A stretch of DNA of 64,000 nt from an uncultured bacterium (GTDB lineage Bacteria > Patescibacteriota > Minisyncoccia > Phycocordibacterales > DATDWN01), in the NCBI GenBank assembly GCA_963727715.1, contig CAVSGX010000004.1:8455-72454 (forward strand). The letters run 5' to 3'. The notes below the pieces were generated by a model. That model saw nothing but the letters and a program-made list of their open reading frames with translations. It was not told the origin of the DNA and searched no databases. Shown here one piece after another: positions 5,967 through 48,242 of this stretch; positions within the stretch are counted from its first letter, which is position 1; each line of letters begins with the position of its first letter. A program made the translations under genes and the position numbers.

Positions 5967-6518
5967 TTAGTGACTGGTTTTTTTATCGTGTTTGTAATAA
6001 ATAAATTTCAGTGCAATTATATAAGCGAAAACAGTAAACGACATAAACGGTATGGTAATGTATGAATATTCCAAAACAAATACCTTGGCACAGGCGCTAC
6101 CTACCGCGGTGCAAGCGAAAAGCGAACCGCCAAAACCCCACTGGACAATTGATTGGTAGAGAGAAATAATCGCTCCGAGAATGGAGAGTGGTACAAGATA
6201 GTCAATTATCCCTTTATCTTTACGACGCATTGCCACAAAAAGTATGATGGCTTGAGGATACATAAAAATGCGTTGCCACCAGCAAAGATCACATGGCGGG
6301 AAGCCGATAATATTTGAATAAACTAAAGAGCCGACAACAGCAGATAACACAGCCCAAAAAAGAAGTTCCAAAATATATTTGTGAACGAAAGCCGAAAGAC
6401 GCACTCGTGTGCCGGCGTGAACAAGCATAGCGATCAAAACTCCGACAAAAATAATGTTTGAAAGTAAAGTTAAAAATCCGATAATCGGCGTGGCGTTTGT
6501 TTGGATAAATGTAATCAT
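5967..6518 (-). CDS. Disulfide bond formation protein B-like membrane oxidoreductase (DsbB/BdbC family)
   Basis: Multi-TM protein with 'PPCDLCWWQR' and a second Cys pair. Confidence 0.55.
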   Translation of the reverse strand: MITFIQTNATPIIGFLTLLSNIIFVGVLIAMLVHAGTRVRLSAFVHKYILELLFWAVLSAVVGSLVYSNIIGFPPCDLCWWQRIFMYPQAIILFVAMRRKDKGIIDYLVPLSILGAIISLYQSIVQWGFGGSLFACTAVGSACAKVFVLEYSYITIPFMSFTVFAYIIALKFIYYKHDKKTSH

Positions 6519-6522
6519 ATTT

Positions 6523-36654: not shown

Positions 36655-38508
36655 TCAATGCTGTTCAGGTTTATTTTTATCAATTGTGTCGTCCACATTA
36701 AGCACTTTACGCAAAACCTCTTCCGGCACTTCTTTCCCCGACGCTGGCGCGGCTGGGGTTTGGACGATTTCTTTTTTAATTCCGGGTTTTATTTCCGTTT
36801 TTATTTCCGGTTTATTCATAACTTGAGACAGAGCATTTTTCAAACTGGAAATATTTTCCACTGTCGGATTTTTTTTATTTTCACTTGAATTCAGAGTAGA
36901 TAATGAAGCTGTTTGCGCAGTTGGAGGATTCTTATTTGAATCTACTGGTTTTCTCTGCGAAAAAGATTTGTTGCGCAAATCTTCGGTGGCTTTTATAAAA
37001 GCCAACTTATTAGGATCAGGGGTTGCAATTGTTGGAGTATTGTTCTGGTTGTTATATTTCTCTTTCTCACTGAAAGGCTTGTTAAAAATCGGACGATTGT
37101 CGACGCTTCGCTGAGGAGATGCCGGCGCAGATAAGGGCATAGGCGAAAAGCTGGAACGTCCTGTTCCTATATTTCCGTCGCCTTGCCCACCACCAGCCAT
37201 TTTGTCTCTTTGGGCCGATGTCCCCTCTTCATGCCATTTTTTTATTTCTGCCTCGACTTCGCCCCGTGGTCGGGTAAACTGTTTCCACGAGCTTTCCATA
37301 ACTTCTTTTTTGAATGAGACATCCGGCCTAGTAATCGGTGGCATAGTGACAGCTGAAAACGGCGCTGAAGAAACTTCATCGATCATCAATTTCAAATAAA
37401 TTTGGTATTTGCCAAGATTGACCAAATCTTCGGCGGTGAAAGTTGGAGCGAATTCTTTTTCCAAAACTTCAGCATCAAAAGCGCCGACTCGAAATGTGAC
37501 CATGGTGCCAACGTTGCCGAAAACGGCGTCGCGCACTTCCTCTTCCATTTGCTCAATGTACTGATGTGTGATGTTTAAACCTAATTTGTACTTGCGGGCT
37601 TCGGACAAAATGTCGGCAAAAGATTTGTTGGCGAAAGATTGAAACTCGTCCACATACAAATAAAAATTCGGCAGTTTGGCTAATTGCTCTTTGTTTTTGT
37701 CCGCTCGAGACATGGCCGCCAAGTATATTTTTGTGATAAGCATTGAACCAATGAGGTTGGCATTGCCCTCACCAACAAGCCCTTTGGACAAGTTGATGAG
37801 CAATATCTTTTTCTCATCCATAAAATCGCGAATGTCAAAAGATGATTTCGGCTGGCCGATTAAATTTCGGACAAGCGGGTTTGATGTGAATTGTCCGACT
37901 TTGTTTTGAATAGCCGGTGTGGCTTCGGCTGCGTATTTGTCGGTGTATTTGGCAAATTCCTCCGTCCAAAAAGTTTTGACCGATGGATCTTTGATGTTCT
38001 CCACCACTTTTTTGCGATACTCTTTGTCAGCTAACATTCGATTAACACCAAGAAGTGTGGCACCCGGATATTCCAAGAGCGCCAAAAGAGTGTTGTTTAA
38101 AATGTAAGCCATGCGAGCTGACCAAGCATCCACCCAGATTTTCTCAAACGTGGACATGAGGCCGTTGACCACCAGATGTCTTTTGTCCACACCAATATCT
38201 TCCAAGACATTGAAAGAAACTGGATGTTCCAAATCAAATGGCGCGAAATAAAGCACATCTTTGATGCGATTTTCCGGGATGTAATCCAGCAGTTTTTCGG
38301 CCATTGAACCGTGCGGATCTATGACGGCGATACCGTTGCCATTTTGAATATCCTGGATGGCCATATTTTCCAAAAGATTGGACTTGCCAACGCCGGTTTT
38401 GCCGATAACATAAACATGACGCAAGCGATCGCTTTCTTTGATACCAAAACGGATTTTTTTGTTGCGAGCGTCCGTTTCGGCAAAATATGTGATGGGGTTT
38501 GGGTCCAT
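36655..38508 (-). CDS. Type IV secretion/conjugation coupling-protein-like ATPase (VirD4/TraG/TraD-like, TrwB-type ATPase domain) with low-complexity C-terminal tail
   Basis: Walker A 'VIGKTGVGKSNLL', 'VIDPHG', and 'YLYVDEFQSF'. Confidence 0.6.
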   Translation of the reverse strand: MDPNPITYFAETDARNKKIRFGIKESDRLRHVYVIGKTGVGKSNLLENMAIQDIQNGNGIAVIDPHGSMAEKLLDYIPENRIKDVLYFAPFDLEHPVSFNVLEDIGVDKRHLVVNGLMSTFEKIWVDAWSARMAYILNNTLLALLEYPGATLLGVNRMLADKEYRKKVVENIKDPSVKTFWTEEFAKYTDKYAAEATPAIQNKVGQFTSNPLVRNLIGQPKSSFDIRDFMDEKKILLINLSKGLVGEGNANLIGSMLITKIYLAAMSRADKNKEQLAKLPNFYLYVDEFQSFANKSFADILSEARKYKLGLNITHQYIEQMEEEVRDAVFGNVGTMVTFRVGAFDAEVLEKEFAPTFTAEDLVNLGKYQIYLKLMIDEVSSAPFSAVTMPPITRPDVSFKKEVMESSWKQFTRPRGEVEAEIKKWHEEGTSAQRDKMAGGGQGDGNIGTGRSSFSPMPLSAPASPQRSVDNRPIFNKPFSEKEKYNNQNNTPTIATPDPNKLAFIKATEDLRNKSFSQRKPVDSNKNPPTAQTASLSTLNSSENKKNPTVENISSLKNALSQVMNKPEIKTEIKPGIKKEIVQTPAAPASGKEVPEEVLRKVLNVDDTIDKNKPEQH

Positions 38509-38660
38509 AATCGTTTATTATTATATCACAGATGATTAAAATCCAAACCACTAAAAGCTCGCCTGATTTTGCTCCGCAAAATCAGAAAGTAAAGAAAAAT
38601 TCAAAATTCAAAAACAAAAGAAAAAACAAATCGACAAGAGACAAGCTACCTTTTTGGAAA

Positions 38661-39650
38661 TCACAAGAACGAGCGGGAGAGGCGACCACCCAGAGGCGGA
38701 TGGGAACTGGACGGAGCATCGGCACGGACACCGAGCCGGGAACCGGCGGGGTTCCAATAGGCGCAGACGACACGAAAGGAAGATGGGGCGGTTTTGTCAG
38801 GGTTTGGCACTTTAGACCCGGGCAAAGCGGTCCAGTAGTATAGACCATCTTTCTCGTTTTTGGTGTCTATGTGCTTGCCTGTTTGTTCAAAGATTTTTCT
38901 TTGCAGGATGAGATAATCGGACAGAGTTAGAGATTGGTTCGGAGGCAAGGAGAGAAAGGTTTCAATCTTTTTGTTCAGAGTTTGTTTAAGCTCTGATTGT
39001 TGCCAGAGTTCTTGACTGTGGACTAGAACGATTCTTCTTTTTTTGTCTTCTATTACTCCTTCAAACCCGCCACCCGAGTTGAAATTGCTTCCGGTGTATG
39101 TTTCGTTGTATCCTTCCGACATTTTAGCGTTTAGGTCTGTCAGGTTTGGCAGAGTTTCCGGAATGAGCAGGATTGTGTCAAAACCGTGTTTTTCTATTTC
39201 TTCTCTGATTTGGTCAATGTTTCTTTCCCAGATGTTTTTCATCGTCTCGGAGAAGTCTTTCGGTCTGTCTATGGAGTGGGTTGTGTAAAAGGAAGTAAAG
39301 TATTCTATTTCTTTTTCAATATCTATGGTTATGGTTTCTTTCTTTTCTTCAGTGGTTGTTTTGCCGGTTTTTTCGTCTTTTGTCTCTTCGATATGTTTGT
39401 ATTCCACTTCTAGAGTTGTTGAGGATTTGCCTTCTATCTTTCTTTTGAGAGAACGGCATTGGGAGAGTGTTTCTTTGATTTTCAGGCTTAGTTCTTTCTG
39501 TTTCTCTGTATCTCCGCTCTCAATGGCTTTTAGGAGTTTATCTTTCATTTCTTCGGCCTGAGAGAGCAGGCCTTCCATTACGGTCAAGTCGGCCAGAGCT
39601 TGTTCTTTGGTTGGTGGAGAGTTTGGGATTTTGGGAGATTCGTGGGACAT
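38661..39650 (-). CDS. DGR target protein 1 (C-type-lectin-fold-like C-terminus carrying VR1)
   Basis: C-terminus 'GFRVVCAYWNPAGSRLGVRADAPSSSHPPLGGRLSRSFL'. About 97% nucleotide identity to the gene at 40671..41660, except in the variable repeat. Confidence 0.8.
   Translation of the reverse strand: MSHESPKIPNSPPTKEQALADLTVMEGLLSQAEEMKDKLLKAIESGDTEKQKELSLKIKETLSQCRSLKRKIEGKSSTTLEVEYKHIEETKDEKTGKTTTEEKKETITIDIEKEIEYFTSFYTTHSIDRPKDFSETMKNIWERNIDQIREEIEKHGFDTILLIPETLPNLTDLNAKMSEGYNETYTGSNFNSGGGFEGVIEDKKRRIVLVHSQELWQQSELKQTLNKKIETFLSLPPNQSLTLSDYLILQRKIFEQTGKHIDTKNEKDGLYYWTALPGSKVPNPDKTAPSSFRVVCAYWNPAGSRLGVRADAPSSSHPPLGGRLSRSFL
38673..38771 (-). repeat. DGR variable repeat VR1
   Basis: It aligns to the template repeat at 43071-43177. 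All but one difference fall at template-repeat adenines (coding sense). Confidence 0.8.
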
Positions 39651-39666
39651 AATGGATGGATGATAA

Positions 39667-40347
39667 TCAGTCTAATTTTATTAATTTCTTTGTCAGAACA
39701 GGAATTTCTTTTTGAAAAAAAGTTTTGACCGAATTCCAATCAGCGTCAAAAAAGATGACCGGCTCTGGATCGCTTTCGGCATCGTCAAAATAAACCATAC
39801 TTTTCAAGATATGGTGATAGTCGTGAGCCACAGACGGATACTGTCCCGGCAATCGTCTGATAATATTTTCCAGCGGTTCCACATTTTTGGCGCACCAGTA
39901 CAAATCAAAGAAATCTCTTTTTCTGCCTCTTTGCGAGCTGGCGATTATTTTCATCACGGCCACATCCGTTTTATTCAAAATTTTGACAAAACCGTATTCC
40001 AAAAATTTTTGTTTTGGAATAAAAAACGGATAAGCGATAAAACTGATTTTGGTGTCATACAATACGCCATATAAAGTGTTTGGTTCATCAATATCCGTGC
40101 TCCAATTTTCATTGCTTGCAAAACGAGATAACAGTTTCTTTGTTATAAAACTTTTTTCTGTGGTAAAAAAATCCAAATCAACAGATTTGCGATTGCCGGC
40201 CTGCAAAGCTAAGGCGGTGCCACCGGCCAGATACCAGCCTGATTCACTCAGCCATTCTTGGGTTGATAAAAAATCCAGAGCTGTTTTGGTTGATTTGGGT
40301 AAACATGAAAAGTTGATGATATTTAATTTTGAAGTGTCAGTGTCCAT
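39667..40347 (-). CDS. Nucleotidyltransferase AbiEii/AbiGii toxin-family protein
   Basis: 'WYLAGGTALALQAGNRKSVDLDFF'. Confidence 0.7.
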   Translation of the reverse strand: MDTDTSKLNIINFSCLPKSTKTALDFLSTQEWLSESGWYLAGGTALALQAGNRKSVDLDFFTTEKSFITKKLLSRFASNENWSTDIDEPNTLYGVLYDTKISFIAYPFFIPKQKFLEYGFVKILNKTDVAVMKIIASSQRGRKRDFFDLYWCAKNVEPLENIIRRLPGQYPSVAHDYHHILKSMVYFDDAESDPEPVIFFDADWNSVKTFFQKEIPVLTKKLIKLD

Positions 40348-40547
40348 AATGCTTTTGTTCTTGGTCTCAAAGACCGTGATGCAGAAACAACTTTTCTCAA
40401 CAATGCCTTGTCATAAAAATTCCAAAGCCAGCGAACCTCATTATCCCTGCCAAAATCTAAAATTCTCTCAATTATATATTGAGCGTTTTTTTCAGTGTCA
40501 ATTCTGCTGACATCGGTGTCCCAAAACAAAGATTGTCTAAATGGCAT
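40323..40547 (-). CDS. Small conserved partner protein of the AbiEii-like nucleotidyltransferase (putative antitoxin-like)
   Basis: Overlaps the AbiEii start by 25 nt. 'LFWDTDVSRIDTEKNAQYIIERILDFG...WLWNFY...SRSLRPRT' pattern. Confidence 0.45.
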   Translation of the reverse strand: MPFRQSLFWDTDVSRIDTEKNAQYIIERILDFGRDNEVRWLWNFYDKALLRKVVSASRSLRPRTKALWTLTLQN

Positions 40548-40670
40548 ACCTTCATTATATCAAATTTTGAGACAATATTCAACAAAAATCAAAATGCAAA
40601 AATAAAAAATTCAAAATTCAAAAACAAAAGAAAAAACAAATCGACAAGAGACAAGCTACCTTTTTGGAAA

Positions 40671-41660
40671 TCACAAGAACGAGCGGGAGAGGCGACCACC
40701 CAGAGGCGGATTGGAAATGGACGGATCATTGGCAACGACATTGAGCTGGGAACCGTCGGGGTACCAATGGGCGCAGACGACACGAAAGGAAGATGGGGCG
40801 GTTTTGTCAGGGTTTGGCACTTTAGACCCGGGCAAAGCGGTCCAGTAGTATAGACCATCTTTCTCGTTTTTGGTGTCTATGTGCTTGCCTGTTTGTTCAA
40901 AGATTTTTCTTTGCAGGATGAGATAATCGGACAGAGTTAGAGATTGGTTCGGAGGCAAGGAGAGAAAGGTTTCAATCTTTTTGTTCAGAGTTTGTTTAAG
41001 CTCTGATTGTTGCCAGAGTTCTTGACTGTGGACTAGAACGATTCTTCTTTTTTTGTCTTCTATTACTCCTTCAAACCCGCCACCCGAGTTGAAATTGCTT
41101 CCGGTGTATGTTTCGTTGTATCCTTCCGACATTTTAGCGTTTAGGTCTGTCAGGTTTGGCAGAGTTTCCGGAATGAGCAGGATTGTGTCAAAACCGTGTT
41201 TTTCTATTTCTTCTCTGATTTGGTCAATGTTTCTTTCCCAGATGTTTTTCATCGTCTCGGAGAAGTCTTTCGGTCTGTCTATGGAGTGGGTTGTGTAAAA
41301 GGAAGTAAAGTATTCTATTTCTTTTTCAATATCTATGGTTATGGTTTCTTTCTTTTCTTCAGTGGTTGTTTTGCCGGTTTTTTCGTCTTTTGTCTCTTCG
41401 ATATGTTTGTATTCCACTTCTAGAGTTGTTGAGGATTTGCCTTCTATCTTTCTTTTGAGAGAACGGCATTGGGAGAGTGTTTCTTTGATTTTCAGGCTTA
41501 GTTCTTTCTGTTTCTCTGTATCTCCGCTCTCAATGGCTTTTAGGAGTTTATCTTTCATTTCTTCGGCCTGAGAGAGCAGGCCTTCCATTACGGTCAAGTC
41601 GGCCAGAGCTTGTTCTTTGGTTGGTGGAGAGTTTGGGATTTTGGGAGATTCGTGGGACAT
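40671..41660 (-). CDS. DGR target protein 2 (tandem paralog of target 1, carrying VR2)
   Basis: The 329-aa protein is identical to target 1 until the C-terminal ~30 aa ('VVCAHWYPDGSQLNVVANDPSISNPPLGGRLSRSFL'). Confidence 0.8.
   Translation of the reverse strand: MSHESPKIPNSPPTKEQALADLTVMEGLLSQAEEMKDKLLKAIESGDTEKQKELSLKIKETLSQCRSLKRKIEGKSSTTLEVEYKHIEETKDEKTGKTTTEEKKETITIDIEKEIEYFTSFYTTHSIDRPKDFSETMKNIWERNIDQIREEIEKHGFDTILLIPETLPNLTDLNAKMSEGYNETYTGSNFNSGGGFEGVIEDKKRRIVLVHSQELWQQSELKQTLNKKIETFLSLPPNQSLTLSDYLILQRKIFEQTGKHIDTKNEKDGLYYWTALPGSKVPNPDKTAPSSFRVVCAHWYPDGSQLNVVANDPSISNPPLGGRLSRSFL
40683..40781 (-). repeat. DGR variable repeat VR2
   Basis: All but one difference from the template repeat fall at template-repeat adenines. 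Confidence 0.8.
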
Positions 41661-41672
41661 GGAAGTATTCTA

Positions 41673-42700
41673 TCATGTTATAACAATATCATTCAATATT
41701 GAAGTCAGTTTGTTTTTTAATCCAAATGAATCGCAGTGTTTCAGTAAAGCAAAATAAGACTGAAAATTATTCTTGTTCATTCTTTCAAAAATTTTTTGCT
41801 TGGTTTTATCTCTCAATAAAAGACAATCTGGCAAAGTCAGAGATCCTAGAAAATCTACTCCCCATTTTAATTTTCTGATTGAGATTTTATCATCCGGGAT
41901 TTGCAGAAACAGTTTTGCCATAAATTTTTTAATTTCAACCAAACAAAACCCCAATCTTTTTTTATTTTTATTTACCAAAATAAAATCGTCGTTGTATCTT
42001 ATATAAAATCTGGCGTTTAATTTTTTCTTCACAAAATGGTCAAAATCGTTCAAATAAATGTTGGCGAAAATCTGGCTGGTGATGTTGCCGAGCGGGATGC
42101 TTTTGTCAGAGCCATGAAGCGAGCAAAAACTTTCTACTATTTTCCCCACTTCCAAAAAAATATTTTCATTTTTCACTTTTCTTTTGATAAATTTCAGCAG
42201 TAGGCGGTGGTTGACACTTTCAAAGTATTTTTTGACATCGCATTTTAAAATAAAAACATCCCCATTTTTTCTTTTCGCCAATCCATTGAAATATTGGAGA
42301 GTTTTGACGGCTTTATGCGTTCCTTTTCCGTCTCTGGATGAATAACGGCTTTATGCGTTCCTTTTCCGTCTCTGGATGAATATGAGTCGGCAATAAATGC
42401 CGGCTCAAATAGATTTTTCAAATAATCGGATATTATTTGATGAATAATTCTATCTTTAACTTCAGCTTTGTGAATATTTCTTTTCTTGTTGTCAGTAACA
42501 ATAAAATGCGAATACCCGCCATGGCGGTAAGTTTTGTTTTTCAGATCTCTGTGCAAATCAAAAATATTGTCTTCCAAATGTCTTTCAAAAATCATTACAT
42601 CCATCTTGGAGGACTTTCCCCGCCGAAATTTCCGCCAAGCTGAAAATATATTATCAAGACTGAATAATTCGTTATAATTTTTATGGAACAAGACGCTCAT
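41673..42700 (-). pseudogene. DGR reverse transcriptase, frameshifted by a 38-bp tandem duplication (split into ORFs 42245..43024 and 41673..42281)
   Basis: 'RNIHKAEVKDRIIHQ', 'FIADSYSSRDGKGTHKAV', 'ILKCDVKKYFESVNH', the DGR-specific 'IPLGNITSQIFANIYL', and 'YIRYNDDFILV'. Deleting one 38-nt copy restores a single frame ('...HKAVKTLQYFNGLAKRKNGDVFILKCDV...'). Confidence 0.8.
42307..42382. repeat. Perfect 2 x 38-bp tandem duplication inside the RT gene
   Basis: 'acggctttatgcgttccttttccgtctctggatgaata' appears twice in tandem. Confidence 0.85.
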
Positions 42701-43057
42701 AAAATTGAAAAATTGGAAATGCCTATTATGGCCAAACTCTTTATCATTTACGAACTGACGCACAAGCTTATTTTCAAATTGCCGAAATTTGAAAGATACA
42801 CTTTGGGTGAAAAAATTGAAAATATCATCTTGGAAACGATTGAAATAATTGTCATCGCCAATGGGACGAACAAATACGAAAAAGAAAAATATTTGCTCAA
42901 AGCCAATGCCAAAGTGGAAATGCTTAAGTTGCTTTTTCGCATCGTTTTGAACTGCCAAATCATTGATTTCAAAAAATATTTGGAGGCGGAAGGGTTGCTT
43001 CAAGAAATCGGCAAAATGGCGCAAGGTTGGATAAAATACACCAGAAACGCAAAATAG
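42683..43057 (+). CDS. avd: Avd-like accessory variability determinant (four-helix-bundle / 23S-rRNA-IVS protein family)
   Basis: 'KLPKFERYTLGEKIENI...KANAKVEMLKLLFRIVLN...LQEIGKMAQGWIKY'. It sits on the opposite strand to the RT and the targets. Confidence 0.7.
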   Translation: MEQDAHKIEKLEMPIMAKLFIIYELTHKLIFKLPKFERYTLGEKIENIILETIEIIVIANGTNKYEKEKYLLKANAKVEMLKLLFRIVLNCQIIDFKKYLEAEGLLQEIGKMAQGWIKYTRNAK

Positions 43058-43070
43058 CTTTTGTATAAAG

Positions 43071-43177
43071 CAAGAACGGCGGGAGAGGCGACAACCCAGA
43101 TTCGGATTGGAATTGGACGGATCATTGGCATTGACATTGAGCTGGGAATTGTCGGGGTTCCAATTGGCGCAGACGAC
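43071..43177 (-). repeat. DGR template repeat (TR), non-coding, coding-sense on the minus strand
   Basis: It carries AAT/AAC at every position that varies in VR1-3, and lies directly next to avd and the RT. Homology to each variable repeat begins across the region matching the target stop codon. Confidence 0.8.
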
Positions 43178-43484
43178 TGCGGTCGCCCCTCGATTAGCTT
43201 TGCGTCGTCATTTCCGTTTGGAAACAAGACTCTATTTATTAGGGGCTACTTCCCCCTGACGCAAAACTGCTGTTCTTGTGTTTTATTTCCACAAATCAAC
43301 GACTATTTGGTTTCTAAAATTCAGAAACCATCTTTCGCCGTCAATTAGCGCTTCGGCAAACCAACTCATCACTGATGGCTTACGAGCCGAAGCGGGCGAT
43401 TTTTGCTTCGCAAAAATAAAAAATTCAAAATTCAAAAACAAAAGAAAAAACAAATCGACAAGAGACAAGCTACCTTTTTGGAAA

Positions 43485-45512
43485 TCACAAGAACGAGCGG
43501 GAGAGGCGACAACCCAGATTCGGATAGGAATAGGACGGATCATCGGCACCGACAACGAGCTGGGAATAGCCGGGGTCCCAATGGGCGCAGACGACGCGGA
43601 AACCGCCGGATGGATTTTTGACTGTTGAGCCGGGTAGCCATGTCCAACCGTCTTCATCCAAATGTTTGCCTGTTTGTTCAAAATATTGCTTTTGATACAA
43701 CAAATAATCTGTCAGAGACATTTTTTCACCTTGCGATATAAACTCCTCGGCTTTTTTATTCAGAGTTTTCTTCAGTTCCGAATGGTCTTTCAGATTTTGA
43801 GCGCTGTTTTTATGAATCAAAACGATTCTTCTTTTTTTGTCTTCTATTACTCCTTCAAACCCGCCACCCGAGTCGAAATTGCTTCCGGTGTATGTTTCGT
43901 TGTATCCTTCTGACATTTTTTTATGTATATCGGTTATGGTCAATCCTCCGGGCACAAGCAAAATCTCATCAAAACCATATTTTTCTACTTCTTGTTTTAT
44001 CTCGTCATAATTGTTCACCCATATATCCGCCATTTCTTCCGCAAATGATTCCGTCAATTCAATTTCGTGAGCTTTATAAAAAAGAAGAGAATCCTCAAGT
44101 TTTTTGTCAAAATTTATTTCTATTTTCTCTTTCTTTTCTTTGCCTTTCTCGTCCACGATTTTGTGTTCGGCAGAAACCACCGGTTCAAACGAACTGCCGG
44201 TCAATTCTCTTCTTTTACTTCTGAAAAATTTCTCCAAATCGGCTATTTCATTTTCAATCTTCTCTATCCCGTCCGCCGGACTTTCGGTTTTACCACCTTC
44301 AGGAATTGCCTCAGCAGACGCTTCTTTTTCTTCTTCGTTATTTTTCTTTTTTCTTTTCGTTCCTTTGCGTTTGGAATCTTTGGTTTCTATTTTGACTTCA
44401 ACCAATCGGATGATTTCTTCCAATTTTGTTCTGTCTTCGGCGCTTTCCAGTCTGTTGACATAATAATATTTCAGGGCTTTTTGAAAAGTTTCGCTGATGT
44501 CGCCATTGTAAAAACGCAAAACAAAATTTCTGACCCGCCTCGGCTCTTCGCGGTCGTCATAGGTGAAAACTTGTGGTTGATCTTCGGCGATTTGCCTGTT
44601 TTTCAAAAGTTCTTTGGCGGTTTTGTGAAATTCCTTGTATTTTTCCAAAATTTCGGCAATGCCTGGAATTTCCGAAAGTTGTTCCTGCGTCAAACCACCG
44701 GCGCCGGATAAAAACATATCATCAGGCAATTCGGCGGTTTTCTTTTCCAAACCGTTCTCTAAACCAAACAATGCACCAGTCGCTTGCTTAAAGGTCTCTT
44801 CCGGTAATTCATTTGGCATTTTTTTATAAACCCATCTGCGAAGCTGAGCTGGATCAAGTGGCTTTCTATCCAAATAACCGGCTCCCGGAGGATTCATAAA
44901 AGCGATGATTTTGGTTTTTTGTTTAGAAACTTTAACTGTTTCCGAAGCGTCTTCTGACAAAATGACATCGCTATCACGCTCCAGAGAATCCAAAACTTCA
45001 TGCAAACGAATCAAAATGTTCGGCGCCGATGAGTTGAATTCGTCCAAAACAATAATTTTGACTTTACCGTCTTCCTGTCGTAAACCGCTAGTTACTTTTC
45101 CGTCGGCGAAAATGTATTCCGGGTCTTCCGCATTATTTTTACGAGGATTTGGTATATATCGGCCCATCAAATCCTCCACATCCGTGGCACCGTTTAAGTT
45201 TATGTAATGAACTTCGTAGCCGAGCTCACTGGCCATTTTTCGCACCGTGGTGGTCTTACCAAAAGATGTTCCGCTTTCCACGGCAATAGGGTCGCCCATG
45301 GAAAACGACACGGCGATGTCACGTTGCAGTGGCAGAGCCACTTCGGTATCATTGGTGTAGTCCTTGTAATTTTCTCTTCTTGGCACAAATTGGCCATTTC
45401 TGTTTTTAGCTTTTTCCAGAGTAACACCCATATAAGAAACACTCCCGTCAGTTTCCATTATCGGCTCCAGTTTTGCTTCCGGATTGTTAAATTGTCCTTC
45501 TGGTGTTTTCAT
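43485..45512 (-). CDS. DGR target protein 3: MoxR-like AAA+ ATPase N-terminal domain fused to the shared C-terminal lectin-like domain with VR3
   Basis: 'ESGTSFGKTTTVRKMASELGYEVHYINL' (Walker A) and 'IIVLDEFNSS' (Walker B). The C-terminal 150 aa are homologous to targets 1 and 2 ('GFRVVCAHWDPGYSQLVVGADDPSYSYPNLGCRLSRSFL'). Confidence 0.8.
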   Translation of the reverse strand: MKTPEGQFNNPEAKLEPIMETDGSVSYMGVTLEKAKNRNGQFVPRRENYKDYTNDTEVALPLQRDIAVSFSMGDPIAVESGTSFGKTTTVRKMASELGYEVHYINLNGATDVEDLMGRYIPNPRKNNAEDPEYIFADGKVTSGLRQEDGKVKIIVLDEFNSSAPNILIRLHEVLDSLERDSDVILSEDASETVKVSKQKTKIIAFMNPPGAGYLDRKPLDPAQLRRWVYKKMPNELPEETFKQATGALFGLENGLEKKTAELPDDMFLSGAGGLTQEQLSEIPGIAEILEKYKEFHKTAKELLKNRQIAEDQPQVFTYDDREEPRRVRNFVLRFYNGDISETFQKALKYYYVNRLESAEDRTKLEEIIRLVEVKIETKDSKRKGTKRKKKNNEEEKEASAEAIPEGGKTESPADGIEKIENEIADLEKFFRSKRRELTGSSFEPVVSAEHKIVDEKGKEKKEKIEINFDKKLEDSLLFYKAHEIELTESFAEEMADIWVNNYDEIKQEVEKYGFDEILLVPGGLTITDIHKKMSEGYNETYTGSNFDSGGGFEGVIEDKKRRIVLIHKNSAQNLKDHSELKKTLNKKAEEFISQGEKMSLTDYLLYQKQYFEQTGKHLDEDGWTWLPGSTVKNPSGGFRVVCAHWDPGYSQLVVGADDPSYSYPNLGCRLSRSFL
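43497..43595 (-). repeat. DGR variable repeat VR3
   Basis: Every difference from the template repeat falls at a template-repeat adenine. Confidence 0.8.
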
Positions 45513-45515
45513 ATT

Positions 45516-45917
45516 TTATGAACGATAAACCGGCCCAACTTTGTCTATAATTTCAAAACTTCTTTCTTTCAATTTCGCCAAAACGCTTTCCGTAGCGACC
45601 AAAACCAAAACCTGACTTTGATAATCAGGTGAAAAAACTTTTGATTCATTTTTTTCTTTATCAAAAATCTCAACTTGACCTGTCGGATACTGCGCGACAA
45701 AATCATATAAGTCCTTCGGTAGATTTTCGTCCAAAACCAGATACATTTTTTGAAAACCAAAAAAATCAAAAACATTTTTTGATGTTTGAAATCCACTATC
45801 TTCAAAAAACTTGATAAAACCACCCATCTCGCTTTCATCCCGCGCCAAAACAAGTCCGACATCTTTTTGTCCTTTCAAGATATCCAGAAACTCATGCAGA
45901 CCTTCGTTTTTGTTCAT
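45516..45917 (-). CDS. Hypothetical protein
   Basis: 133-aa ORF between the vWA gene and the AAA-fused target gene. Confidence 0.4.
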   Translation of the reverse strand: MNKNEGLHEFLDILKGQKDVGLVLARDESEMGGFIKFFEDSGFQTSKNVFDFFGFQKMYLVLDENLPKDLYDFVAQYPTGQVEIFDKEKNESKVFSPDYQSQVLVLVATESVLAKLKERSFEIIDKVGPVYRS

Positions 45918-45956
45918 AGTTGTATTCTAACACTAACCGGAAAATTATCAAATTTT

Positions 45957-48242
45957 TCAACCAACAACTTCTTTCTCAAGTATTTCTGATATATCTTTTA
46001 TTATTTTGTCCACTTTTATATTATCGGATTTTAGCGGGTAATAAATAAGCTTTACACCGCCGGCTTTTTCGATTTTGCCTTTAATTTTTTGAAAATCATA
46101 TTTTGAGCCGGGATGTTTAGTGGATTCAGCTGGTCTGTCATCCGAAAAAACAATCATTATTTTGTTGTCTGTTTTTTGTTTTGCAAGTCTTGCCGAAGCG
46201 GTTTCCATAGCCCAACCAATGTCGGTTTCATTATGCTCATTTCCGCAATTTTTGCAACAACTATCTTCAACCTCTTTAAACATTCCTCCCATGTGTTCCC
46301 TGATTTTTTTTGACATTGGCTCTCCAAATTTTTGATACTCGTATATATCATCATTAAAACCGTTAATTTCAACGTTCAATCCTAGTTTGTTTAATGCTTC
46401 AGCCAGCACAACTTTTGCTTTGAAATCTTCTTCAATTTTTTTACGCATAGAACCAGATAAATCGTTTAGAATGGAAATTGAATATTCTTTTTCATCTGGT
46501 TTTTCTCTTTTTTGCCAAGCGTTGCTTTCTATTGGCGAAATGCGTCTGGCTTTTTCCTGAATCCTTGTTTTTATATCAATTCTTTTGCCTATTCTAAAGC
46601 CCTTTTTCCATCTTGTGGTTTGGGTGTCAACAAATATCTGTCTTAGTTTATTTTCCAATTCATCAATCAGCGACGAAACTTCTCGTCGGTGCTTTTCATA
46701 AATATTTTCGTCTTTATTGACTTCTCTTTTTAATCTTTCTTTGTATATTCTCAATCCTTCCAAATCAAGAGGTTCTTTTCTTAAAGTTCCGGTTCTGACC
46801 GGAGCGCCGCCTTGATTTTGATTGTTTATTTCAACCCCTGGCAAATTTTCCGGCGGTTCTGGATTTTTTCTTTCTGCTTTTTCCTCCGGATTTTCAGTCA
46901 ATTTGCCTTCCATTTCTTCGTTTAGTTTGTCTTCAAATTCCTTCAGCGCTTTTTCGGCTCTGTCGGCCAGCTCTTTTTTCACATCTTCCGGAAGCGAGTC
47001 GACATAATCCCTTATTTTTTGTTTTATTTCGTCGGAAAGGTCGTTCAGGTTTATTGTCCTCGCACCGATATCGTCTAGCGTCTGTGGTTGTTCATTGCCG
47101 GTGTTGTCTTCGTGTGGAGTCGGCTTGTTTGTGATTTTATCTTCTCCCTGCCCACCTGTTGACATTGGTTTGATTTTTTCTTTCTCTTTTTTTGCTTCAT
47201 CAATAGCTTTGTCAATAGCATTTTCCAACGTTTTCTTTTCTTCTTCGGTTAATTTGTCTTCCAAATCTTTTGGCAGTTTTGATTTTTTTTCATTTTTTTT
47301 ATCTTCACTTTCTCCTTCCTGATTTCCGTTATCTTTTTGTCCATCACCACCTTCCTTCCCATTTTCTCTTTCTTGCTCTTTTTTCATTTCTTCCATCATC
47401 TTTTTCATCACATCTTTCAACACTTCTTCCATTTTCTCATCCTCTTTATCTGCTTCAACCAGTTTTTTAAATTCTGGCCAAATTTCTTCCAGATTTATTT
47501 CATACGACACTTTGGCGTATTCTTTTATTTTTTCTTCACTTTCATCCGCTTCCTCTCGCGACGGATATCGCCACCAAGAATCCTGAGCTGATTTCAGTGT
47601 GGCTAAAACAACAGCTTTGACTTCTTCGGGCAAATCTTCCGAAATTTCAAAATTCTGTCCCTGTTTTTCACGAAACCATTGTCTAATATATTCATACCCC
47701 GCTTGCACAAAACGCGGTTGGAAACCCAGTTTTTCGGTAGCTTCTTTCTTTTCTTTTTCTCTTTTGGCAAAAAAATCATCCCAAGCAAATTTTATATTTT
47801 CATCGTATTTCGGATAACTCTCGGAAACAAAGTTGTCGTTTCTGGGATCTTCAATGAAATTCATCATAGCTGAAAAGCCCGGTTGTCGCCATGTTTCAAT
47901 CGGAATAAAATCTGTTCTGGAAACTCGTCTATGTCCTCCTTCGTGACAAATTAAATATCTCAATAATTCAATTGGCTCCGTCAGCAGAGTTTTCGGGTCA
48001 ACTCTGATGACATTTTTTTGAAAATCCCAATGCCAGCCAGCGCCTGGTTGGTTTAGTTCTATCGGCATCTCAAAATCTTTGCCAATAAAATAAGCCAGAG
48101 ATGACAAAATATTTTTCTTGCGCAGAATTTCTTTTTGTTCTTCTTCGTTAAATCGCTTCAAGATTTCCTCTTCTGGATTTTGCCGGAGAGAATCGTAGGT
48201 TTGTTCGTTTTGATTGAATTTTGGTCCTTCCATAATTTGCAA
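45957..48242 (-). CDS. vWA-domain protein with N-terminal HExxH metallopeptidase-like motif and long acidic coiled-coil linker (MoxR partner)
   Basis: MIDAS motif 'ILNDLSGSM' in a C-terminal vWA fold. 'LICHEGGHRR' and an E/K-rich low-complexity middle. Confidence 0.6.
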   Translation of the reverse strand: MQIMEGPKFNQNEQTYDSLRQNPEEEILKRFNEEEQKEILRKKNILSSLAYFIGKDFEMPIELNQPGAGWHWDFQKNVIRVDPKTLLTEPIELLRYLICHEGGHRRVSRTDFIPIETWRQPGFSAMMNFIEDPRNDNFVSESYPKYDENIKFAWDDFFAKREKEKKEATEKLGFQPRFVQAGYEYIRQWFREKQGQNFEISEDLPEEVKAVVLATLKSAQDSWWRYPSREEADESEEKIKEYAKVSYEINLEEIWPEFKKLVEADKEDEKMEEVLKDVMKKMMEEMKKEQERENGKEGGDGQKDNGNQEGESEDKKNEKKSKLPKDLEDKLTEEEKKTLENAIDKAIDEAKKEKEKIKPMSTGGQGEDKITNKPTPHEDNTGNEQPQTLDDIGARTINLNDLSDEIKQKIRDYVDSLPEDVKKELADRAEKALKEFEDKLNEEMEGKLTENPEEKAERKNPEPPENLPGVEINNQNQGGAPVRTGTLRKEPLDLEGLRIYKERLKREVNKDENIYEKHRREVSSLIDELENKLRQIFVDTQTTRWKKGFRIGKRIDIKTRIQEKARRISPIESNAWQKREKPDEKEYSISILNDLSGSMRKKIEEDFKAKVVLAEALNKLGLNVEINGFNDDIYEYQKFGEPMSKKIREHMGGMFKEVEDSCCKNCGNEHNETDIGWAMETASARLAKQKTDNKIMIVFSDDRPAESTKHPGSKYDFQKIKGKIEKAGGVKLIYYPLKSDNIKVDKIIKDISEILEKEVVG

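Follow-up and report, generated by a model that had tools for sequence, protein, structure and literature searches.

A conserved, hairpin-free element downstream of variable repeats as a probable acceptor-site signal in a DGR lineage of CPR/Patescibacteria

In the DGR of the Bordetella phage BPP-1, as well as in similar phage and Legionella DGRs, the IMH of the variable repeat (VR) is accompanied by a downstream hairpin or cruciform (Guo et al. 2011, PMC3240598). Hairpins of the BPP-1 type consist of a GC-rich stem of 7–10 bp and a 4-nt GRNA loop and are located 4–34 bp after the VR, and in the BPP-1 DGR the GC-rich hairpin that follows the IMH boosts homing (PMC3240598). This type is further defined by a structure that is kept while its sequence varies, by a need for it in efficient retrohoming, and by its sufficiency for retargeting a heterologous gene. 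The GC-rich hairpin is the only accessory target signal characterised and is detectable in approximately one-third of DGRs (PMC5758913). In the survey of Wu et al. 2018, 66% of 372 DGRs lacked a detectable GC-rich inverted repeat, and it was inferred that recognition extends downstream where the IMH is identical to the IMH* of the template repeat (TR) (PMC5758913). Target hairpins with GRA triloops have been described for the nanoarchaeal DUSEL4 DGR (Paul et al. 2015, PMC4372165). How the DGR cDNA locates and enters the target is still unresolved, according to a 2026 reconstitution study (PMC12875486).

The locus described here is encoded in the window, i.e. the whole 64,000-nt stretch of DNA that was analysed (contig CAVSGX010000004.1 of assembly GCA_963727715.1, from an uncultured bacterium of the Patescibacteriota). 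Its system is a canonical DGR, in which the adenine pattern of TR and VRs, the bAvd gene, the RVT_1 reverse transcriptase (RT), and the IMH/IMH* pair were all identified. The RT gene (41673–42700; RVT_1, E = 9.8e-15) and the TR (43071–43177, or 43079–43177 in the four-locus alignment), which contains the IMH* GTCGCCTCTCCCGC-CGTTCTTG, are encoded on the minus strand. The bAvd accessory gene (42683–43057; Pfam PF22296 bAvd, E = 1.4e-17) is placed between them on the opposite, plus strand, as is also the case in locus L003. A metagenome scan with RT alignment identified 80 further RT loci, 57 of which have adjoining TR/VR pairs, and the RT of the window is 44–58% identical to these 80 RTs. In the window, a perfect tandem duplication of 38 nt (42307–42382) splits the RT ORF by shifting its frame, and the system may thus no longer be active; the RTs of loci L003 and L005 are intact. 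Upstream of the TR, a conserved RNA-like domain with covarying pairs (43178–43398, minus strand) probably forms the 5' portion of the DGR RNA; a search of window positions 38000–46000 with Rfam covariance models returned no matches at E ≤ 1.

Three VRs are present, all on the minus strand and each at the 3' end of an ORF: VR1 (38673–38771) in ORF 38661–39650 (329 aa), VR2 (40683–40781) in ORF 40671–41660 (329 aa), and VR3 (43497–43595) in ORF 43485–45512 (675 aa). Among the 21 TR adenines, 15, 9, and 11 are changed in VR1, VR2, and VR3, respectively, whereas the 78 other positions contain 1, 1, and 0 mismatches, i.e. 35 mismatches at TR adenines in total versus 2 elsewhere, the latter being a T-to-G change shared by VR1 and VR2. 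No non-A position of VR3 differs from the TR. The 675-aa target carries an AAA_5 N-terminal domain in addition to the C-terminal domain common to all three targets, for which no Pfam match was obtained.

A block of 92 nt is identical in all three VR flanks (38595–38686 in the coordinates of copy 1, minus strand) and comprises, in this order, the GC block GTCGCCTCTCCCGC, TCGTTCTTG, the stop codon TGA, and 66 non-coding nucleotides. The first two parts form the IMH, located at 38664–38686 in VR1 and with the same sequence at 40674–40696 in VR2 and 43488–43510 in VR3. The 66 non-coding nucleotides, hereafter the element, read TTTCCAAAAAGG, then TAGCTTGTCTCTTG, and then a tract of >60% T. In copy 1 (38595–38660), the A-rich linker TTTCCAAAAAGG occupies 38649–38660, the tandem heptamer TAGCTTG-TCTCTTG occupies 38635–38648, and the T-rich tract with TTG boxes occupies 38595–38634. 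Copy 2 is located at 40605–40670, and copy 3, which follows VR3 and is the TR-proximal one, at 43419–43484, with the TR-upstream RNA domain directly next to it; all three copies are on the minus strand. The earlier note on this DNA, made without database searches, had described the same element after each VR, and both strings that it quoted occur exactly three times in the window with up to three mismatches allowed (none expected by chance). Its copy positions are right to within 1 nt (the repeat search gave starts at 38595, 40605, and 43419). The range that it gave for the first copy, 38596–38672, covers the non-coding part together with 12 nt of the ORF (nine coding nucleotides and the stop codon), and the GC block that it quoted, at 38664–38687, falls mostly outside that range.

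At the TR, the same GC block is present, with a single T deleted relative to VR3 (CCCGC-CGTTCTTG against CCCGCTCGTTCTTG) and with the deleted T plus one further T/G difference relative to VR1 and VR2. Beyond the IMH*, the TR sequence diverges into the region antisense to avd, and the element is absent. The four-locus alignment therefore agrees with the earlier description of a GC block that differs by 1 nt at the TR and is followed by divergence.

The identity of the three copies, on which the earlier note had relied, was reproduced, but it is weaker evidence than it seems, as two of the copies derive from a recent duplication. Over the 990-nt ORF and the element together (1056 nt), copies 1 and 2 differ at only 12 positions, all corresponding to TR adenines, and are otherwise 100% identical. 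These two copies represent a recent whole-gene duplication, so their shared flank says nothing about selection and VR3 is the sole independent comparison inside the window. Since VR1 and VR2 differ only at the 12 TR adenines and the other approximately 957 nt are identical, at least one element-bearing copy was a live acceptor recently; the gene was duplicated a short time ago, and one or more retrohoming events came after the duplication. At the nucleotide level, the VR3 gene and copy 1 match in only three places: 184 nt comprising the VR and the element, an island of 99 nt that lies 250 nt upstream, and a stretch of 28 nt. In the region immediately preceding the VR, their identity is only approximately 56%. 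The 99-nt island is 98–100% identical in the paralogues amid diverged coding DNA, which indicates that patchy gene conversion does occur among them.

Outside the window, the target domain has few relatives, which fall into only six protein clusters. In the contigs of these six clusters and in 19 CPR/Patescibacteria loci, (G)GTAGCTTGTAGCTTGA or a near variant is followed by T-rich DNA, and in all 19 target-gene relatives in CPR genomes the motif or a close variant begins 1–12 nt past the stop codon. In the related DGRs, nearly every VR has a tandem heptamer, TARYTTG-TARYTTG-A, followed by approximately 30 nt of roughly 70% T, at a median of 18 nt past its GC block. In 251 kb of related loci, 33 of 34 motif matches directly follow the GC block of a VR. 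In 664 kb, 76 occurrences of the strict motif were counted against 0.8 expected, and 73 of the 76 are directly after a VR; the element recurs in dozens of related uncultured bacteria (CPR/Patescibacteria). The behaviour of a dispersed, REP/MITE-like repeat, which the earlier note had considered in the form of a generic repeat found widely away from VRs, was not seen either in the window, where all copies follow VRs, or in the 664 kb. A search for the exact 17-mer in viral contigs gave zero matches.

A sequence-only model (R1) was trained on 45 elements, none of them from the window. In the window, it matched exactly the three copies (38606–38655, 40616–40665, and 43429–43479 with 18.7, 19, and 18.8 bits, respectively; E ~1e-4), and the next best match scored 8 bits. 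In 413 kb of RT loci, all 47 matches of this model are on the target-gene strand, and all matches checked against VR positions are at VR ends; many of the matched sequences were training members, so this result is to be taken as showing the absence of off-site matches.

The same comparison separates VRs from TRs. In the related RT loci, the element is present at VRs and at none of 48 distinct TR ends. In the seven loci first examined, the TRs all end in CCCGCCGTTC without the motif, and the VRs have CCCGC[A/T]GTT or CCCGCTCGTT. The assignment of IMH and IMH* in the earlier note is well supported by this contrast between TR and VR ends and by the canonical nature of the DGR. In approximately 9 of 32 TR/VR pairs, IMH and IMH* are indistinguishable, and in those pairs only the downstream sequence can separate the VR from the TR. 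The proposal that the downstream 66 nt may mark the acceptor thus receives strong comparative support, the putative mark being linked to VRs, absent from TRs, conserved, and sharply ended.

In the anchored alignment, T1 A2, T5 T6 G7 T8 A9, and T12 T13 G14 of the heptamer doublet are invariant, and positions 3, 4, 10, and 11 vary, mostly by transitions. Natural variants include CAGCTTG in L001 and L008, a doublet shortened by 1 nt in L014, and an insertion of approximately 50 nt in L048. Extra TTGTA boxes are frequent near +18 and +45. The T content peaks at 68–71% from +25 to +44 and returns to background by approximately +65. Among 18 within-genome pairs of paralogues, mean identity is 98% from the IMH to the motif, 88% over element positions 0–60, 77% in the upstream coding DNA (56–72% in the diverged pairs), and 52% at +70 to +130. 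This profile identifies the element as a discrete block with a sharp end that is better conserved than the adjacent coding DNA. TTG boxes after VRs average 3.7 per 72 nt, versus 1.6 in the background and 2.5 in T-rich background; the TTG-box array as the defining feature of the element therefore finds modest support, and the heptamer pair is the strong signal.

These conservation data bear on whether the element has any function at all. The element is more uniform within a genome than between genomes, and the duplication of copies 1 and 2 and the patchy conversion seen in the 99-nt island would both be expected if its identity merely reflected the concerted evolution of paralogous 3' ends through recent duplication and gene conversion. 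The T tract varies between genomes, so its exact identity within a genome does not come from selection on every base, and gene conversion or recent duplication must contribute to it. However, conversion cannot yield the invariance of TA..TTGTA..TTG in 45 non-redundant elements from many metagenomes and MAGs, and it leaves unexplained both the sharp 3' boundary and the near-constant distance to the GC block (from CCCGC to the first position of the doublet, median 18 nt, range 9–28 nt). A functionless element is accordingly considered very improbable.

Nearly all carriers of the strict motif have the ...LG.R.SRSF C-terminal module, i.e. they belong to one target-protein family. The strict motif is thus confounded with that family and could be a 3'-UTR feature of it: an atypical terminator, an mRNA-stability element, a regulator site, or another transcription signal, inherited with the VR-bearing C-terminal module and unrelated to homing. 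In line with this reading, the element begins just past the stop codon and, as mRNA, is rich in U, and in locus L001 a non-VR gene that shares the N-terminus of the targets has a T-rich tract with TTTTGA boxes, albeit no heptamer pair. A T-rich run downstream of the stop codon is also typical of intrinsic (Rho-independent) terminators. Unlike such terminators, however, the element contains no stem ahead of the T run, and consensus scans called neither terminator-like nor promoter-like sites at any copy. The genome has ordinary hairpin-plus-T-run terminators after other genes, and T-rich 3' flanks are not a habit of the genome, as the non-coding flanks of 13 non-target genes average 32% T (SD 8) versus 59% in the element. 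The loci whose IMH equals IMH* need a downstream discriminator between VR and TR. In RT loci at 44–47% identity, the targets come from other protein families. The R1 model has zero matches in the RT loci from L068 onwards, and yet the TTG density of 4 of 7 VR flanks in distant RT loci with other target families is among the highest ~1% within the respective locus. TTG-box arrays after the VRs of distant DGRs with unrelated target families favour a tie to the homing machinery, though this support is weaker than that from the motif because TTG density is only modestly distinctive. Taken together, a 3'-UTR origin, whether as a transcription signal or as a passenger of the C-terminal module, is judged unlikely.

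The earlier note had suggested folding the downstream element in search of a hairpin or cruciform, and in this respect its expectation was not borne out. Segments that span the element fold no better than shuffled sequence, either as RNA (141 nt, z = -0.14) or as DNA (101 nt, MFE -1.4 kcal/mol, z = +1.26). The only 4-bp pairing possible in the doublet, a mini-hairpin AGCT-TGT-AGCT, is disrupted by mismatches in 27 of the 57 non-redundant elements. Conservation of the element rests on sequence, not on base pairing.

Hairpins do occur beyond the element. One, CTGATTTTGC-GGA-GCAAAATCAG, is located just past copy 1 (38563–38585, minus strand), and a similar one, ATTTTTGC-GAA-GCAAAAAT, past copy 3 (43399–43417, minus strand). 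Two of the three window copies hence precede hairpins with GGA or GAA triloops, as in DUSEL4, where GRA is the constrained loop type of the nanoarchaeal hairpins (PMC4372165), and locus L030 carries ACTCGC-GAA-GCGAGT at a similar offset. A BPP-1-like hairpin with a GRA triloop could on these grounds be the real signal, with the conserved block acting as a mere spacer. Yet copy 2 retains just the 5' arm, and across the clade stems of at least 6 bp were found in 18 of 67 VR flanks (27%) versus 21% of random segments, counted over 170 nt after the motif. The window stems are moreover AT-rich and lie approximately 75–85 nt past the end of the GC block, compared with the 4–34 bp after the VR described for BPP-1-type hairpins (PMC3240598). 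Unlike the DUSEL4 hairpins, which are inside the gene, they are located outside it; they are also beyond the element, missing at one copy, and without conservation across the clade. The distal hairpin is therefore given very little probability as the signal.

The position of the TR-proximal copy raises a further possibility, namely that the element serves the DGR RNA as its promoter or 5' leader and that the remote copies are relics of duplication. In all seven loci first examined, a VR with its element is placed approximately 250 nt upstream of the TR (342–382 nt to the TR GC block), with the conserved RNA domain next to it. The remote copies nevertheless keep the element although the DNA downstream of them is unrelated (52% identity beyond +70), the consensus promoter scan finds no promoter in the element, and a leader function would not require retention at VRs that are kilobases away. 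A role of this kind is highly unlikely.

Nucleic-acid partners of the element within the cassette were also sought. Strict complements of the heptamers in the DGR RNA (spacer, TR, and avd-antisense region) are sporadic, and when G-U pairs were allowed, the mean best match was 15.3/19 versus 14.9 for shuffled motifs; the recurrent best pairing site, in the avd-antisense region at approximately +300, falls within coding sequence that is itself conserved. Genome-specific partners of the T tract were equally not apparent, with scores of 10.8 and 10.5 in the same sense and 10.5 and 10.6 for the complement in the own and in another genome, respectively. That the cassette holds no complementary or co-varying partner favours a protein or an RNP as the reader.

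On these comparative grounds, the 66 non-coding nucleotides are probably a clade-specific, sequence-defined, cis-acting acceptor-site signal of this DGR lineage of CPR/Patescibacteria. Since the tag recurs in dozens of related bacteria, it probably labels the sites into which mutated copies are inserted. The proposed signal would start approximately 12 nt past the stop codon with the heptamer pair, followed by some 30–40 nt of T-rich DNA with TTG(T/A) boxes. Together with the GC-rich IMH, the element would direct the homing machinery to the repeat that is to take up the adenine-mutagenised cDNA, and the template would escape overwriting because no such element follows the TR. Recognition would depend on the sequence and not on a DNA structure, with a protein or the RT-Avd-RNA particle as the probable reader, and the signal may act by exposing the sense strand on the 3' side of the IMH or by stalling a replication fork there. 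The need of the element for homing, its reader, and its mechanics are inferred. A more specific version, in which target choice follows a sequence code whose heptamers and T tract are bound by the RT, Avd, and the large covarying RNA domain, is put forward tentatively and is possible rather than likely.

By analogy, the role of this putative acceptor-site signal is most likely similar to that of the BPP-1 hairpin/cruciform next to the IMH, although the element is of a different kind. In both systems, the element directly follows the VR and its GC-rich IMH at the target stop codon and is absent after a TR with a near-identical IMH*, and several VRs that bear it are served by one TR. Unlike the BPP-1 hairpin, the window element has neither an inverted repeat nor a GC-rich 7–10 bp stem with a GRNA loop, measures approximately 55–65 nt versus 24 bp, is AT-rich with strong T/A strand asymmetry, and conserves sequence instead of pairing. 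The window element belongs to the majority class of DGRs, those lacking the inverted repeat (PMC5758913), and some members of its lineage have an IMH equal to IMH*. A concrete conserved downstream sequence can, however, be named here for one lineage, whereas that survey described none. The literature searched, which excluded the survey of CPR DGRs by Paul et al. 2017 (Nat Microbiol), contained neither the motif string nor an earlier description of it.

These results assign to a large uncultured lineage a specific element that is conserved and is not a hairpin, and the natural variants together with the clear contrast between VR and TR make the question directly testable by mutation, deletion, and transplantation. 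If the element is sufficient, it could be a compact targeting tag for engineered diversification. If the sequence code is true, any gene end with the tag would be an acceptor, the tag would be small and transplantable for retargeting such DGRs, and the code would account for the service of one TR to several dispersed VRs, also in loci whose IMH is identical to IMH*.

Between the element that follows VR3 and the template repeat (TR; 43071-43177, minus strand) lies a conserved RNA-like domain of ~220 nt (43178-43398, minus strand), which is also present at the equivalent position in the related loci L003, L005, and L012-L066 from CPR/Patescibacteria or metagenomes. It comprises a CTTCGG...CCGAAG hairpin, a long-range helix (GCAGTTTTGT/ACAAAGCT), and a GGGG/CCCT hairpin, and compensatory changes were found in 17 of its 25 predicted pairs when 36 loci were compared. 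An Rfam search of 38000-46000, which includes this domain, returned no match at E <= 1. The bAvd gene (42683..43057) is encoded on the plus strand, whereas TR and the RT gene (41673-42700), which flank it, are both on the minus strand. The bAvd and RT genes are head-to-head and share 18 nt at the start of the RT gene. As a result of this layout, the 3' flank of TR is antisense avd. The same bAvd/TR/RT arrangement was observed in L003 and the other related loci. In BPP-1, the structured RNA that recruits the RT is located downstream of TR, whereas in the DGR of the window the avd antisense is downstream and the RNA-like domain is upstream. The upstream domain may represent an undescribed DGR RNA domain.

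The RT gene contains a perfect 38-nt tandem duplication (42307-42382; 2.0 copies, 100% match), which shifts the reading frame directly past the ...GKGTHKAV motif. In related loci, the RT is intact and ~320-335 aa long. Possible explanations for the duplication are a recent inactivation event, variation within the population, and an error in the assembly. Despite the frameshifted RT in the window, VR1 and VR2 were diversified after their own duplication.

The three target paralogues share a 99-nt island (39027-39125, 41037-41135, and 43821-43919), which encodes KMSEGYNETYTGSNF.SGGGFEGVIEDKKRRIV and is 98-100% identical among them, compared with an identity of only ~56-65% in the surrounding coding DNA between the 329-aa and 675-aa genes. 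Synonymous sites of the island are conserved as well, as would be expected from gene conversion or from a constraint acting on the nucleotide sequence itself. In a collection of 5.8 billion sequences, the C-terminal domain of the target protein (ORF 38661-39650) matches just six clusters, the best relative being only 64% identical, and the source genome is apparently not included in the collection. Targets are bigger in many related loci (815-1059 aa). A VWA-domain protein consistently accompanies the DGR (window, 43485-48242; L003, 2799-4826; and L012, L013, L015, and L020, where it is located downstream of the RT). In the window, an AAA_5 (MoxR-like) domain that is fused to a target protein is also associated with the DGR. 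Target copies 2 and 1 are separated by a small DUF6922-like ORF and a gene for an AbiEii nucleotidyltransferase toxin (39667-40547, minus strand), and the DUF6922-AbiEii-target order is the same in L004.

Beyond the post-stop elements, copies 1 and 3 are followed by hairpins (38563-38585 and 43399-43417, both on the minus strand) whose TTTTGC/GCAAAA stems are closed by GGA and GAA triloops. Copy 2 (40605-40615) has only the 5' arm, TTATTTTTGC, in common with copy 3 and then diverges, which places the boundary of a duplication or recombination within the hairpin. Directly past the copy-2 element is a consensus promoter (TTGAAT-17-TATAAT, 40582-40554).

Several natural variants were identified among the related loci. 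The three VRs of L037 (ends at 1331, 3164, and 8024) are mutually identical, without diversification. In L048 (3147-3250), an insertion of ~50 nt separates the heptamer pair from the T-rich tract, and the second heptamer of L014 (about 6499-6520) carries a 1-nt deletion. These three loci provide useful natural material for testing.
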